From assembly GCA_028820505.1 (NCBI GenBank), contig JAPPIT010000058.1:2287-66286 (forward strand): 64,000 nucleotides of DNA. Direction: 5' to 3'. The position numbers were made by a program, and so were the translations under genes. Every line of letters begins with the position of its first letter. Position 1 is the first letter of the stretch. The notes below the pieces were generated by a model. The model ran no database searches and was not told the DNA's origin. It was given only the letters and a program-made list of their open reading frames with translations. This document shows positions 32,276-64,000 of the stretch, piece by piece. The stretch is from Defluviicoccus sp. Lineage in GTDB: Bacteria; Pseudomonadota; Alphaproteobacteria; MPNO01.

Positions 32276-33198
32276 ACGCGCCGCCGGACATTTTCCGCGT
32301 CCCGGAGCCTCTGGAGAGCTTCGATGCCGAGATGGAGGACGGCGCCGTCATCCGGGTGCGGCGCCACGGCAACCCGGACGGGCCCAGGCTGGTGATGGCG
32401 CACGGCAACGGATTCGCGATCGACGCCTATTACCCGTTCTGGCGGCTGCTCACGGACCGCTACGACCTCGCGATCTACGACCAGCGCAATCACGGCCGCA
32501 ACCCGCGCCACGACGTGGACCGCCACGACGTTCCCACCTTCGTCGCCGACATGGACCGGTTGGTCGACCTCATCCCGGAGCGTTTCGGCGCCAGGCCAAC
32601 GGTCGGCGCGTTCCATTCGATCTCGGCGGTGACCGCGGTCCGGCACGCGCTGGAACGCGGCTGGAAGTGGGATGCACTCGCGCTGTTCGACCCGCCGCTG
32701 ATCCCCTCGCCCGGCCACCGGGCGCACGAGGTGGCACGGACGTTCGAGCTCGGTCTCGCGGACTGGGCGGCGGCGCGGCCGGACCGGTTCTCCGACGCGA
32801 TGGAGCTCGCCGTCCGCTTCGCGCGCTCGAAGAGCCTCGCGCGCTGGGTCGAGGGCGGGCACGCGCTGATGGCGCGCTCGATCACCCGCGAGGACCCGGC
32901 AACCGGAGAATTCGTGCTGTGCTGCCCGCGCGAGGGAGAGTCGCGGGTCTACCGCACCAACGCGGGGCTCGACCTCTGCCCGCGCCTCGGCGAGCTGAAG
33001 GGGCCGCTCACCTTCATCTCGTCCGACCCCGACGCGCCGGGCGCGCTGGCGCCGGGCAAGGTCGGCCGCGCGATGAAGGAAGACCACGGCATCGAATGGA
33101 CACCGATCGGAAACACCAGCCACCTGCTCCAGATCGAACGCCCCGACGCCTGCCACGCGGCGCTGGAGACCTTCCTCGCGAGGCAGGACCTCGGTTAA
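32272..33198 (+). CDS. alpha/beta-hydrolase fold protein, tandem paralog 2
   Basis: ATGA overlap with paralog 1. HGNGF, elbow AFHSISA, Asp 24 residues after the Ser, and a C-terminal NTSHLLQ His. Confidence 0.7.
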   Translation: MNAPPDIFRVPEPLESFDAEMEDGAVIRVRRHGNPDGPRLVMAHGNGFAIDAYYPFWRLLTDRYDLAIYDQRNHGRNPRHDVDRHDVPTFVADMDRLVDLIPERFGARPTVGAFHSISAVTAVRHALERGWKWDALALFDPPLIPSPGHRAHEVARTFELGLADWAAARPDRFSDAMELAVRFARSKSLARWVEGGHALMARSITREDPATGEFVLCCPREGESRVYRTNAGLDLCPRLGELKGPLTFISSDPDAPGALAPGKVGRAMKEDHGIEWTPIGNTSHLLQIERPDACHAALETFLARQDLG

Positions 33199-33201
33199 GG
33201 A

Positions 33202-33298
33202 GGTCCCTCGATACGGTCCCTTCGGGACCTACTCGGGATGAGGGAATTCCACGGATTCCCTCACCCTGAGCAGCCGCGAAGCGGCGTATCGAAGGGCG
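33202..33298. repeat. MITE-like element with terminal inverted repeats, copy 1
   Basis: ggtccctcgatacgg ... ccgtatcgaagggcg termini and an internal cctactcgggatgaggg / ccctcaccctgag stem. It fills the 103-bp gap between convergent gene ends. A reverse-complement copy lies at 62252-62359. Confidence 0.55.
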
Positions 33299-59223: not shown

Positions 59224-61254
59224 ATGGCGAGTGCTTCCGGGCCACGCTGCGTGGCACTAGTCGGACCCTATCTCAGCGGCAAGACCACGCTGATGGAGAG
59301 CCTGCTCTCGGTGTCGGGCGGGGTTCACCGCAAGGGCTCGATCAAGGAAGGCAACACCGTCGGCGATTCCGCGCCGGAAGCGCGCGCCCGCCAGATGTCG
59401 GTCGAGATCTCGGTCGGCTCGACCTCCTATCTCGACGACGAGTGGACCGTCCTCGACTGCCCGGGCTCGATCGAGATGCGGCAGGAGGCGTTGAACGCCC
59501 TGATGGTCGCCGATCTGGCGGTGGTGGTCTACGAGCCCTCGACCGAACGCGCGATGACGCTCGCGCCGCTGTTCAAGGTTCTCGCCGACCGCGGCATCCC
59601 CCACATGGTGTTCATCAACAAGATCGACACCATCACCGAGCCGGTTTCCGCGGTCTACGAGGCGCTGAGGTCCGTGGAGCACGCGCCGCTGGTGCTCCGC
59701 CAGATCCCGATCCGCGACGGGGAGACGGTCTCGGGCTATGTCGATCTGATCAGCGGGCGGGCGTACAAGTACACCGCCGGGGCGGGCTCGGAACGCATCG
59801 ACATGCCGGACCCCGTCGCCGACGAGTACGCGGCGACGCGGGAGTCGATGCTGGAGGCGCTCGCAGACTTCAACGACGAGTTGCTGGAGAAGCTGCTCGA
59901 GGACGAGGTTCCCGACATCGAGGAGATTTACGGCTACCTGACCGAGGGGGTGCGCGCCGCCGACGTGGTGCCGGTGCTGATCGGTTCCGCCGAGCAGGAT
60001 TACGGCGTCAGGCGCCTGTTCAAGGCGCTGCGCCACGAGGTGCCGGGCCCGGATGCCGCGATCGAGCGCCTCGGGGTCGAGATCGGCGGCGGAACCGCCG
60101 CCCAAGTCTTCAAGACCTACCACGCCCAGCACGCGGGCAAGCTCTCTCTCGCCCGCGTGCTCTCGGGAACCGTCACCGAGGGCATGACCCTGAACGGCCA
60201 GCGGGTGGGCAGCCTGTCGTCGCTGATGGGCGGTCAGCAGAACAAGATCGGGAGCGCCGAGCCCGGCGCGGTCGCCGCGCTCGGACGGATGGACGCGGTC
60301 AGGACGGGCGATCTGCTCACCGACGGCGGCGGGGAGGCGAACGGCGCCGATTGGCCGGAACCGATCGTGCCGGTCTATGCACGCGCCATTTCGCCGGAGA
60401 ACCGCAACGACGAGGTCAAGCTCACCGGCGCGCTGCAGCGCCTGAACGAGGAAGACCCCTCGGTCAGCTACGAGCAGAACGCCGACACCCGCGAGATGGT
60501 GTTGTGGGGCCAGGGCGAGATTCACCTCCAAGTCGCGCTCGAGAAGCTCAAGGGACGCTACAACGTGTCCGCCGTCGCCTCGCCGCCGAGCGTGCCGTAC
60601 AAGGAGACCATCCGGAAGACAGTCTCCCAGCACGGCCGCTTCAAGCGCCAGACCGGCGGTCACGGCATGTTCGGCGACGTCCATGTCGATATCTCGCCCC
60701 GGCCGCGCGGCGAGGGGTTCGAGTTCACCGACAAGATCGTCGGCGGCGCGATCCCGAAGCAGTTCATCCCCGCGGTCGAGTCCGGCGTGAAGGAATTCGC
60801 GGAGCGCGGGCCGCTCGGCTTCCCGGTGGTCGATTTCGCGGTGCGGCTGACCGACGGGCAGTTCCATCAGGTCGACAGCAACGAGATGTCCTTCAAGCTC
60901 GCCGCCCGGGTGGCGATGACCGAAGGCATGCCCAAATGCAGCCCGGTGCTGTTGGAACCGATTTCCAAGGTGGAGATCGACGTACCGGCCGATTCCACCA
61001 ACAAGGTGCACGGGCTGATCAGCGGCCGCCGCGGCCAGATCCTCGGCTTCGCGCCCAAGGAGGGCTGGAAGGGCTGGGATACGGTGGAGGCCAACATTCC
61101 GAGCTCGGACATCGTGGATCTGATCATCGAGCTGCGCTCGCTGAGCCAGGGCGTGGCGACCTTCCGGTCTTCCTTCGACCGTCTCCAGGAGCTGACCGGC
61201 CGCCTCGCCGACCAGGTGATCGAGGCCCGCAAGGAGGCCGAGGAGGCGAACTAG
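59224..61254 (+). CDS. elongation factor G family GTPase paralog
   Basis: 676 aa. G1 GPYLSGKTTL, G3 DCPG and G4 NKID motifs, plus EF-G domains II-V. It lacks the canonical fusA context, since msrP follows it. Confidence 0.85.
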   Translation: MASASGPRCVALVGPYLSGKTTLMESLLSVSGGVHRKGSIKEGNTVGDSAPEARARQMSVEISVGSTSYLDDEWTVLDCPGSIEMRQEALNALMVADLAVVVYEPSTERAMTLAPLFKVLADRGIPHMVFINKIDTITEPVSAVYEALRSVEHAPLVLRQIPIRDGETVSGYVDLISGRAYKYTAGAGSERIDMPDPVADEYAATRESMLEALADFNDELLEKLLEDEVPDIEEIYGYLTEGVRAADVVPVLIGSAEQDYGVRRLFKALRHEVPGPDAAIERLGVEIGGGTAAQVFKTYHAQHAGKLSLARVLSGTVTEGMTLNGQRVGSLSSLMGGQQNKIGSAEPGAVAALGRMDAVRTGDLLTDGGGEANGADWPEPIVPVYARAISPENRNDEVKLTGALQRLNEEDPSVSYEQNADTREMVLWGQGEIHLQVALEKLKGRYNVSAVASPPSVPYKETIRKTVSQHGRFKRQTGGHGMFGDVHVDISPRPRGEGFEFTDKIVGGAIPKQFIPAVESGVKEFAERGPLGFPVVDFAVRLTDGQFHQVDSNEMSFKLAARVAMTEGMPKCSPVLLEPISKVEIDVPADSTNKVHGLISGRRGQILGFAPKEGWKGWDTVEANIPSSDIVDLIIELRSLSQGVATFRSSFDRLQELTGRLADQVIEARKEAEEAN

Positions 61255-61276
61255 GGAGAGGCGCCGGGGAGGGGCC

Positions 61277-62230
61277 ATGTCGACAAGAACGAAGCGCGGC
61301 TGGGAACTGCCGGAATCTGCAGCGACGCCCGAGGACAAGTTTCTCAGGCGGCGCGAACTCGTGAAGGCGCTCGCCGCCGGGCCCCTGCTGGCCGCTTCGG
61401 GGATCGGACTCGCGGGTCCCGCCCTCGCGTCGACCGGCCTCTACCCGGCCAAACGCAACCCGCGCTACCGGCTCGACCGCGCGATCACCGACGAGCGGAT
61501 CGTCACGACCTACAACAATTTCTACGAATTCGGCTCGCACAAGCAGATCTGGAAAGCCGCGCAGAAGCTCAAGACCAGGCCTTGGACGGTGACCGTCGAC
61601 GGCATGGTCGAAAAACCCTTCACCATCGACGCCGAGGCGCTGATCCGGAAAATGCCGTTGGAGGAACGGCTCTACCGCCACCGCTGCGTCGAGGCCTGGT
61701 CGATCGCGGTGCCGTGGAGCGGCTTCGCCCTCGAGGCCCTGGTCGCCATCGCGCGGCCCTCGGCCGGTGCGAAATATCTGGAGATGCGCGGGTTCCACGA
61801 CGCCTCGGTCGCCAGCGGGCAGCGCCAGGTCTGGTATCCCTGGCCCTACCTGGAGGGGCTGACGATCGACGAGGCCACCAACGAGCTCGCCTTCATCGCG
61901 ACCGGCGCCTACGGCAAGCCGATACCGAAGCAGAACGGCGCGCCGCTACGCCTCGCGGTGCCCTGGAAATACGGCTTCAAGTCGATCAAGTCGATCACCC
62001 GCTTCACCTTCACCGACAAGCGCCCGGTCAGCTTCTGGGAAGAGATCGCGGGTAACGAGTACGGCTTCTGGGCCAACGTCAACCCCGAGGTCGACCACCC
62101 GCGCTGGAGCCAGGCGACGGAGAGGCAGCTCGGCACCGGCCAGCGGGTCCCCACCCTGCTCTACAACGGCTACGCGGAACAGGTCGCCCACCTCTACAAG
62201 GACATGAAGAGCGAGGCACTGTTCAAGTAG
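61277..62230 (+). CDS. msrP: protein-methionine-sulfoxide reductase catalytic subunit MsrP (YedY)
   Basis: Tat signal RRRELVKALAAG, and the Mo-binding region FYEFGSHKQIW...CVEAWS with the conserved Cys. Confidence 0.85.
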   Translation: MSTRTKRGWELPESAATPEDKFLRRRELVKALAAGPLLAASGIGLAGPALASTGLYPAKRNPRYRLDRAITDERIVTTYNNFYEFGSHKQIWKAAQKLKTRPWTVTVDGMVEKPFTIDAEALIRKMPLEERLYRHRCVEAWSIAVPWSGFALEALVAIARPSAGAKYLEMRGFHDASVASGQRQVWYPWPYLEGLTIDEATNELAFIATGAYGKPIPKQNGAPLRLAVPWKYGFKSIKSITRFTFTDKRPVSFWEEIAGNEYGFWANVNPEVDHPRWSQATERQLGTGQRVPTLLYNGYAEQVAHLYKDMKSEALFK

Positions 62231-62251
62231 GCCGCGTCCGTTGCGAGCGGT

Positions 62252-62359
62252 CGCCCTTCGATACGCCGCTTCGCGGCTACTCAGGGTGAGGAAAGCGTCG
62301 GGTCGGCCGGAAAAATTCCCTCATCCCGAGTAGGCGCGCCAGCGCCGTATCGAGGGACC
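62252..62359. repeat. MITE-like element with terminal inverted repeats, copy 2 (reverse orientation)
   Basis: The reverse complement aligns with copy 1 over both termini and the cctactcgggatgaggg core. The internal segment differs. It sits between the msrP stop and the antitoxin stop. Confidence 0.55.
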
Positions 62360-62363
62360 CGTT

Positions 62364-62597
62364 CTAAGCGTCCTCCCATCTCCTCAACTCTTTCTCCGGC
62401 AGCGGTTCGAAGAAGTGCTCGGGAACGACGATCTTTCCCTTGAGGACATCGGGCCGGCGCTTGCCCCGCGGCTTGCAGGGAACGAGCCGTGCGACGGGTT
62501 CTCCCCGGCGCGCGATCAGGATCTGCTCCCCCATTTCGGCCTGCCTGAGGAGCCGGCAGAGCTGGGTCCTGGCCTGATGGACGTTGACGATCTTCAC
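62364..62597 (-). CDS. Phd/YefM-type (VapB-like) antitoxin, solitary
   Basis: GTG start. VKIVNVHQARTQLCRLLRQAEMGEQILIARRGEPVARLVP plus the C-terminal LKGKIVVPEHFFEPLPEKEL tail that pairs with PIN toxins in canonical loci. No toxin ORF is adjacent. Confidence 0.65.
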   Translation of the reverse strand: MKIVNVHQARTQLCRLLRQAEMGEQILIARRGEPVARLVPCKPRGKRRPDVLKGKIVVPEHFFEPLPEKELRRWEDA

Positions 62598-63064
62598 ACC
62601 CCCTCCTCCGGCCGGCCCGCCATCATCCGCACCGCCCGGTAGGTTATCACCTTGTCCCCGTTCTGGTTGATGACGTCGTTGGTCGTCGTCACGATTCCCC
62701 GGTTTCCCTTGCTGGTCGGGCGGATCGCGGTGACCTCGACCTCGGCGTGGACGGTATCGCCGGCGAACACGGGCTTCAGCACCTTCTTCTCGACCTCGAG
62801 CAGCGCGAGCCCGGTGGTCTGCATCGCCGCCTGGCAAAGCAACCCCTCGACGATCGTGTAGGTACAGGCGGCCGGCACCACCCGGCCCTGGATCGCGCCG
62901 TGCCCGGCCTCGTTGAACGAGAGGTCGGTGAAGATCGTCTCGACCATCCCCGTCACCCCGATGAAGCCCACGATATCGGGCTCGGTGATGGTCCTGTTCA
63001 GGGTGCGGAACCGGTCGCCGACGGCGAGGTCGTCCCAATAGAAGCCGATGCCGATGGTTTTCAT
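62594..63064 (-). CDS. MaoC-like (R)-hydratase/dehydratase, hot-dog fold
   Basis: 156 aa. MKTIGIGFYWDDLAVGDRF and the hot-dog catalytic region. ATGA overlap with the upstream CoA-transferase gene. Confidence 0.75.
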   Translation of the reverse strand: MKTIGIGFYWDDLAVGDRFRTLNRTITEPDIVGFIGVTGMVETIFTDLSFNEAGHGAIQGRVVPAACTYTIVEGLLCQAAMQTTGLALLEVEKKVLKPVFAGDTVHAEVEVTAIRPTSKGNRGIVTTTNDVINQNGDKVITYRAVRMMAGRPEEGV

Positions 63065-64000
63065 CGTTCCTCCCCCTCGGTGTTTCCCCGCCCGTCGACC
63101 GAGGCGCCCGAGGCGAACAGGGCGGCGATCTCCGTCTCGGCGAGCCCGGCCTCGGCCAGGACCTCGGCGGAATGCTCGCCGAATCTGGGCTGCAGGCGCC
63201 GGATGCCCGTGTCCTCGCCCGCGTCGGAAAACCTGACGGGCGGGTCGGTCAGCACGATCCCGCCCTCGGTCGGATGGCGGACGCGGCGGAAGAACCTCAC
63301 CGCGTCGAGATGCGGATCCTCCATCAGCTCCTCCAGCGTCGCGACCGGCGCGGCGGGGATTTCGAGCCGCTCGAAGATCTCCGCCCATTCGGCACTGGTC
63401 CGTTCGCCGAGGCACTCCCCGGCGGTCCGGTAGACCTCGTCGATATTGTCGCTCCGGCTCTTGAGCGTGTCGAAACGCGGATCGTCGATCAGCTCCGGCC
63501 TGCCGACCTCGCGCCAGAACCGCCGCCACTGCTCGTCGGTATAGGCGAGCATGCAGATATAGCCGTCGGCGGTCGGGTAGGGCCGGCGCCAGGGAACCAG
63601 CACACGGGGATAACCCATCTCCGCCACCGCCGGGTCGAAGGCGCGGCCGTAGATGTGCTCGGTCAGGTTGAAGGCGGCCATGGTCTCGAACATGGGGATC
63701 TCGACGAACTGGCCGCGCCCGGTGCGTTCGCGTGCGAGCAGCGCCGCGATCACCGAATAGGTGGCGACCAAGGCGCAGGTCTTGTCGGCCATGATGGTGG
63801 GCATGTAGCGCGGCTCGCCGACCAGCCTGGCCATCAGGTCGGCGCTGCCGCTGCGTCCTTGGATCACGTCGTCATAGGCGGGCTGGCCGCCATAGGGGCC
63901 ATCGGTGCGGTAGCCGTGCAGCCCGGCATAGACGATGCGCGGGTTGCGGGCGCAGACGCTCTGGTGGCCGAATCCGAGACGGTCGAGCTTCTGGGGCCGG
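63061..64000 (-). CDS. family III (CaiB/BaiF) CoA-transferase, C-terminal part (N-terminus beyond window)
   Basis: The frame stays open to the window edge. The translation upstream of the track's GTG continues as ...LGFGHQSVCARNPRIVYAGLHGYRTDGPYGGQPAYDDV, the family III signature region. Confidence 0.8.
   Translation of the reverse strand, partial: RPQKLDRLGFGHQSVCARNPRIVYAGLHGYRTDGPYGGQPAYDDVIQGRSGSADLMARLVGEPRYMPTIMADKTCALVATYSVIAALLARERTGRGQFVEIPMFETMAAFNLTEHIYGRAFDPAVAEMGYPRVLVPWRRPYPTADGYICMLAYTDEQWRRFWREVGRPELIDDPRFDTLKSRSDNIDEVYRTAGECLGERTSAEWAEIFERLEIPAAPVATLEELMEDPHLDAVRFFRRVRHPTEGGIVLTDPPVRFSDAGEDTGIRRLQPRFGEHSAEVLAEAGLAETEIAALFASGASVDGRGNTEGEER

Follow-up and report, generated by a model that had tools for sequence, protein, structure and literature searches.

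Organization of the Locus

The window, i.e., the whole 64,000-nt (64-kb) stretch of Defluviicoccus sp. DNA analyzed here, contains a small ORF of 77 codons on the minus strand, which opens with GTG at 62597-62595, closes with TAG at 62366-62364, and is attached to two metabolic genes (Table 1). Its product has been found to belong to the Phd/YefM family of antitoxins, as it scores 36.7 bits against PF02604 and 29.9 bits against TIGR01552, above the curated cut-offs of 29.8 and 20.8, respectively, with the matches confined to residues 1-44. The Phd/YefM-type N-terminus that an initial annotation had recognized in the 77-aa product has thus been borne out. The gene directly upstream encodes a 156-aa MaoC-like protein with hits to PF01575 (MaoC_dehydratas, 34.8 bits) and PF13452 (FAS1_DH_region, 30.2 bits), and is itself preceded by the CoA-transferase gene, whose product comprises 408 aa when read in the full contig, according to the gene table of L001; the window has been matched to MAG contig JAPPLA010000046.1. 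Both junctions of this gene array are overlapping: the MaoC stop TGA (62596-62594) shares a 4-nt GTGA with the Phd start, within the hexamer GTGTGA, and the MaoC ATG (63064-63062) shares an ATGA (63061-63064) with the CoA-transferase TGA (63063-61). An SD-like GGAGG is located 4 nt upstream of the orphan start, within MaoC. The two overlaps had been proposed before and have been confirmed by their coordinates, while the earlier calls of MaoC, CoA-transferase, and convergent msrP have been upheld by PF01575/PF13452, PF02515, and NF003767, respectively. Between the Phd stop and the msrP stop we have measured 133 bp (62231-62363), which corrects the 134 bp given initially, and most of this spacer is taken up by a palindromic repeat.

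Table 1. Features of the locus, with positions counted along the 64-kb window.
Feature	Positions	Strand	Basis
Convergent msrP, downstream limit of the putative former cassette	61277..62230	+	NF003767, 416 bits; synteny in L003, L004, L009, L089, L090, L173
REPIN/MITE-like palindromic dispersed repeat, where L009 has the PIN toxin gene	62252..62359		Arms 62255-62294 and 62316-62356
Orphan Phd/YefM-family (VapB-type) antitoxin ORF, 77 aa, GTG start	62364..62597	-	ORF and translation, profile matches
GTGA overlap, Phd start / MaoC stop	62594..62597	-	Read from sequence
MaoC-like (R)-hydratase / hotdog-fold gene, 156 aa	62594..63064	-	PF01575 and PF13452 matches
Family III CoA-transferase, 3' part, extends beyond the window	63061..64000	-	PF02515 (CoA_transf_3), 218 bits
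Second copy of the palindromic repeat	33202..33298		Between convergent ORFs ending at 33198 and 33302

The Antitoxin Family and Its PIN Partner

A one-genome-per-species scan has yielded at least 545 relatives of the antitoxin, the best 80 of which have been analyzed as loci; the 79 cluster representatives listed for the orphan protein range from 51 to 96% identity. These best 80 of at least 545 relatives derive from MAGs of Alpha- and Gammaproteobacteria, Binatia, Acidobacteriota, Gemmatimonadota (Ca. Palauibacter), Dadabacteria, Latescibacterota, Chloroflexota, Nitrospirales, and others. Downstream partners have been typed by tblastn with six downstream proteins over the 80 loci, and in 73 of them a match to a 128-aa PIN toxin starts 1-10 bp past the antitoxin stop, whereas three loci contain a stub only and four no toxin match. 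This context supports the initial reading of the C-terminal tail of the orphan as one of the PIN-neutralizing type. The toxin of the family scores 62.9 bits against PF01850 (PIN), carries a PIN annotation in the gene tables precomputed for L091-L093, and has a D-E-D-D pattern visible in its sequence. On the antitoxin side, the nearest solved relatives of the profile are VapB46 of M. tuberculosis (6jqy), phage P1 Phd (3hry), and VapB5 (3dbo), with the similarity restricted to the N-terminal domain; like these Phd/YefM-fold antitoxins, the orphan matches the Phd/YefM profile with its N-terminal 40 residues. Judged from profiles and gene neighborhood, the family can be described as VapB antitoxins of the Phd fold that have a VapC-like PIN toxin as their partner. 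As in VapBC type II TA modules, its antitoxin genes adjoin the 128-aa PIN toxin gene directly upstream of it. In contrast to such modules, the window is devoid of a toxin gene, of an own promoter/operator region, and of purifying selection on the antitoxin, and would therefore hold a remnant rather than a module.

Antitoxins of the Phd-PIN cassette in L009-L088 share 60-76% identity and are distributed over MAGs of roughly ten phyla (among the best 80 of at least 545 relatives), and many of the record names resemble those usually given to bins of sponge symbionts (Ca. Palauibacter rhopaloidicola, RHO/APA/SB bins). This distribution suggests an extensive horizontal spread of the cassette in one habitat, the latter being read from record titles only. 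Two tandem antitoxin genes precede one toxin in L054 (4001-4524) and L086 (4001-4548), and two cassettes within about 2 kb have been observed in L088 and in L018, the first cassette of the latter having a damaged toxin. On a metagenome contig (L093, 3026-4824), the cassette adjoins two other TA pairs, one formed by a PIN gene and an unnamed 74-aa gene, the other of the Phd-YoeB type, and in L091/L092 it is placed among AAA-ATPase/PDDEXK and methyltransferase genes; the contexts in L091-L093 look like defence or TA islands.

Syntenic Loci With and Without the Cassette

The gene order hemD-hemC / tsaD / CoA-transferase-MaoC-Phd / repeat / msrP / EF-G, with no toxin, is common to the window and four further genomes (L003, L004, L089, L090), which together are referred to as the window clade. 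A different arrangement has been found in L009, a Defluviicoccus sp. MAG, whose flanking proteins are 95.5% (MaoC), 92.7% (MsrP), and 95.1% (EF-G) identical to those of the window. Here, MaoC is followed by a 92-nt spacer, Phd, a full-length PIN ORF, 4 bp, and the msrP stop, so that the comparison of related strains suggested by the initial annotation has uncovered an intact-looking Phd-PIN pair at the syntenic site. The toxin of L009 fills the same interval as the repeat of the window. The Phd genes of L009 and of the window appear to be orthologous by descent, as the dS of Phd, 0.37-0.47 when L009 is compared with the window clade, is close to the flank values of 0.28-0.42, and as L009 is the nearest nucleotide neighbor of the orphan genes among 51 family genes. 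The 92-nt spacer of L009 includes TTGACA and TATAGT hexamers at a distance of 19 nt, a pair that has not been accepted by a consensus promoter scan.

At the toxin start, the aligned codon is CTG in two lineages (L009, 4231-4233; L005/L006, 5237-5239; L007, 839-841; L008, 682-684; L010, 4237-4239), with no canonical in-frame start upstream of it and the remainder of the toxin ORF intact, whereas 64 of the 70 toxin matches have a canonical start codon. As a consequence of this CTG, gene callers report only a PIN fragment of 74-77 aa. The CTG start may represent attenuation or silencing, and hence an early step of TA decay.

In the more distant L170, with a MaoC of 89% identity, the hemD-hemC-tsaD-CoAT-MaoC synteny is present together with neither Phd nor PIN. 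As this genome shares the upstream synteny and has no Phd/PIN, the cassette would be a lineage-specific insertion and not a part of the ancestral operon. A further variant has been observed on a 4.79-Mb contig (L173), which has the same MaoC-Phd junction as the window, neither toxin nor repeat, and 18 bp from the ORF to msrP, a spacer similar to the sequence that borders the repeat of the window on its right. The ORF of L173 (4001-4180, also P0076) encodes a 59-aa remnant, and its ATG start is part of an ATGA shared with MaoC. An in-frame deletion of 54 nt has removed 18 codons of the Phd core (EAGEEVVIARRGEPVA), after which the Pfam match is gone; the whole C-terminal, putatively toxin-binding tail has been kept, including Pro65, Leu66, Pro67, Glu70, Leu71, and Trp74. 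A 225-aa MaoC-Phd fusion (P0124, L169 3001-3678) has been dismissed as an assembly or frameshift artefact; its long-read contig has a coverage of 2x and contains split versions of TsaD and CoA-transferase as well.

A working TA system at the window locus would require a cognate toxin gene at another place in the genome, as in a split module, or in the form of an unrecognized small ORF nearby. The toxin search covered 64 kb of the MAG, which leaves some room for a distant partner, cognate or cross-reacting. Within these 64 kb, however, the toxin HMM has found no match anywhere in the six-frame translation, and toxin-family matches are likewise absent from L001-L004, L089, L090, and L173. The repeat fills the 133-bp spacer, in which there is no ORF beyond chance frames of 30-32 aa, and no toxin remnants have been recognizable in any spacer frame or in the short flanks of the repeat (5 nt and 24 nt). 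The orphan is thus found with no adjacent co-oriented cognate toxin and, its start overlapping the MaoC stop, with no intergenic DNA that could hold an own promoter/operator upstream. An antitoxin facing a live toxin should, moreover, show strong purifying selection, which the orphan does not, and a working system is therefore regarded as very unlikely.

Selection on the Orphan Gene

Pairwise comparison of Phd in the five toxin-less syntenic loci has given ω values of 0.73-2.0 for the pairs with any synonymous change, while in the same five genomes eight concatenated neighbor genes have shown 0.11-0.18 at similar dS (about 0.02-0.10). For MaoC, ω is 0.07-0.13, and for the operon genes 0.07-0.14. 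Counted as the minimum per codon column (172.7 nonsynonymous, N, and 55.3 synonymous, S, sites), the changes in the five Phd genes amount to 27 N, one of them nonsense, and 8 S, which fits ω = 1 (p = 1.0) and rejects ω = 0.21 (p = 1.3e-5). For comparison, the antitoxins of 50 intact Phd-PIN pairs have a median ω of 0.21 and a maximum of 0.48. The changes in Phd differ from those in the flanks by Fisher's test (p = 2.9e-5), and the dN/dS clearly below 1 by which a functional, i.e., selected, gene is recognized has not been seen for the orphan. Both halves of the protein behave alike, with 13 N : 5 S in the N-terminal and 11 N : 3 S in the C-terminal half. A selective retention of the C-terminal half, considered on account of the N-terminal clustering of differences between the window and L004, has been rejected, as the tree-wide counts reveal the two halves to be equally neutral.

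The neutral pattern is accompanied by disabling changes. In the sister strain L003, TGG has been converted to TAG at the family-invariant Trp74, and the protein of the window deviates at the nearly invariant Ser14 and Ala22. Scored against the family HMM, the five orphans reach 130.6-141.0 and are all below the 50 intact members (≥143.3); the L009 antitoxin, which was outside the HMM training set, scores 150.9 and is thus near the median. The ORF is nevertheless open in four of the five genomes of the window clade and in L173, and the comparison of the window clade with L173, at a flank dS of about 0.35, gives an ω of 0.39-0.70 for Phd, and not 1. On these deeper branches, some constraint or later, independent toxin losses may have contributed; either the loss of the promoter preceded that of the toxin, or the C-terminal peptide has been of some use for a time, e.g., in anti-addiction.

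A part played by orphan antitoxins in anti-addiction has been suggested previously (PMC7192599), and one may postulate that the antitoxin, or its C-terminal peptide, is still kept to neutralize PIN toxins of the same family while piggy-backing on the housekeeping operon. The wide occurrence of the cassette family over MAGs of many phyla, the deep-branch ω, the ORF open across a dS of about 0.35, and the in-frame nature of the L173 deletion, which spares the key C-terminal residues, are all consistent with such a role. Yet within the toxin-less clade the C-terminal half is as neutral as the N-terminal one, the L003 protein is truncated at an invariant residue, and the C-terminal substitutions hit the conserved FF/DPLP region, and we consider a retained anti-addiction function unlikely. 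In a more specific form, which we likewise hold to be improbable, the C-terminal peptide would protect against a Phd-PIN cassette in horizontal circulation among co-resident bacteria of many phyla, apparently associated with sponges, and would have been re-wired to the housekeeping operon after promoter loss. If so, the long-open frame and the in-frame core deletion of L173 would be its signs.

Origin of the MaoC-Phd Coupling

The MaoC-Phd junction of the window recurs in L003, L004, L089, L090, and L173, at the place where L009 has its 92-nt spacer. The GTGA coupling can therefore be interpreted as a deletion scar, left by the loss of the cassette's own upstream spacer, and the embedding of the orphan in the operon as a probable by-product of losing these 92 bp. 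The start codon of the orphan is GTG in the window and ATG in L173. Since the start codon and the GGAGG are both made of the last codons of MaoC, their conservation is uninformative regarding selection on the antitoxin.

This point bears on the second possibility raised by the initial annotation, an antitoxin-like regulator domesticated for metabolic control, in which a Phd-like DNA-binding protein would now govern the CoA-transferase/MaoC operon by way of translational coupling. Indeed, given the GTGA and ATGA overlaps, the orphan is likely to be co-expressed with the operon, and the arrangement is common to six genomes; the start overlap, however, is dictated by MaoC and says nothing about the Phd ORF. 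The same operon runs without such coupling in L009 and L170, and the N-terminal half, which should bind DNA, is the most changed one (13 N : 5 S) and has been deleted in L173. Taking into account also the orphan ω of about 1 against 0.07-0.14 in the operon genes, the nonsense mutation in L003, and the 54-nt core deletion in L173, domestication has to be judged extremely unlikely.

Probable Decay of a Phd-PIN Cassette

Very probably, the orphan is the neutrally drifting antitoxin half of a Phd/PIN (VapBC-type) cassette, of which the toxin gene and the own promoter have been deleted. In a Defluviicoccus-like ancestor, a mobile cassette of Phd/YefM antitoxin and PIN toxin would have integrated at the site that separates the CoA-transferase-MaoC operon from the convergent msrP. 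The branch leading to the window would have lost the 384-bp toxin gene as well as the 92-bp upstream spacer of the cassette, presumably together with promoter and operator. After the loss of the spacer, the orphan would be expressible only through read-through from the metabolic operon and coupled re-initiation. A REPIN-like palindromic repeat would later have entered the short gap in front of msrP. Having neither a toxin to neutralize nor an operator to bind, the antitoxin would have escaped purifying selection, and the ORF would be in the course of decay.

In the simplest reading, the toxin was deleted first and the repeat was inserted later, in the window clade. Toxin loss did not need the repeat, because the toxin-less orphan of L173 has no repeat either. 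Flank dS puts the window clade, L173, and L009 at nearly the same distance from one another (0.33-0.36), and the order of events is therefore deduced from the shared MaoC-Phd junction rather than from a tree. The initial annotation had pictured a decayed TA module whose toxin was displaced by a MITE. Its first part agrees with the Phd and PIN genes that L009 carries at the site, while the displacement is probably wrong, as L173 has neither toxin nor repeat in the 18 bp before msrP.

Orphan antitoxins without an adjacent toxin have been catalogued in Klebsiella pneumoniae, and degrading TA pairs have been named as one of their sources (PMC7192599). As in these cases, the window contains an antitoxin homologue without toxin where a related genome has a TA pair. 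Unlike in K. pneumoniae, several stages of decay can be read at one chromosomal site, i.e., the complete cassette with a CTG toxin start (L009), the fused toxin-less orphan (L173), the orphan accompanied by the repeat (window clade), and the nonsense allele (L003). An orphan antitoxin from a decaying chromosomal VapBC-type module is a known and ordinary kind of gene relic, for which no new mechanism has to be invoked; what is new is the staged series at one site and the apparently wide horizontal spread of the cassette family. The locus could become a small natural model for the demise of chromosomal TA modules, comprising loss of the toxin start codon, deletion of toxin and promoter, colonization by a repeat, and nonsense or internal-deletion alleles. 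Its value is also that of a cautionary example, as a translationally coupled antitoxin in a metabolic operon mimics domestication, and it is the comparison with relatives that points to a TA wreck.

The Palindromic Repeat Beside msrP

The repeat next to the orphan is built from nested inverted arms, and its RNA fold has been calculated at -71.6 kcal/mol (z = -4.8). It occurs in two copies within the 64-kb window, in all five loci of the window clade, and is missing from L173 and L009. An exact 21-mer of its right arm has been found in 75 stretches of public metagenome contigs, many of which come from the same assemblies. The initial annotation had described a MITE-like repeat at this position, and the inverted arms, the second copy, and the metagenome matches establish it as a real dispersed element. 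A two-arm build has been observed in 41 of 67 distinct copies, with lengths of 86-122 nt (median 108), in the common order CCCTCGATACGG, a small GC hairpin, CCTACTCGGGATGAGG, a variable loop, and CCTCACCCTGAGTAGCCGCGAAGCGGCGTATCGAAGGG.

Two-arm architectures have been described for REPINs and REP elements (Bertels and Rainey, 2011, PMC3116915; PMC3337134), and the repeat at 62252-62359 shows this build, with two inverted REP-like arms around a spacer in extragenic DNA. As in REPINs (PMC3116915, PMC3337134), each arm includes a small GC hairpin (GCCGC-GAA-GCGGC), the spacer is variable, and the element of ~108 nt is extragenic, lies between convergent genes, and is multi-copy. Its in-genome copy number refers to the 64 kb of the window (two copies). 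No target-site duplication is visible by inspection at its flanks (AACGG and GACCG), and a search of 61000-64000 against Rfam at E ≤ 1 has returned no family, so that the repeat is not a curated RNA. Consensus scans for promoters and terminators have returned nothing at the window locus or in L009, and the hairpin has been ruled out as a canonical intrinsic terminator, as a T-tract is absent. As far as this evidence goes, the element is classifiable only as REPIN/MITE-like.

In the right arm (62272-62294 of the window, and copies in L094-L168), the GCCGC-GAA-GCGGC sequence corresponds to the GCGAAGC mini-hairpin motif. Tandem copies of the repeat are present in some metagenome contigs (L102, at 2604 and 2718). 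The repeat family looks modular, because some copies, e.g., in L099, L100, and L119, consist of single arms that are joined to another left module.
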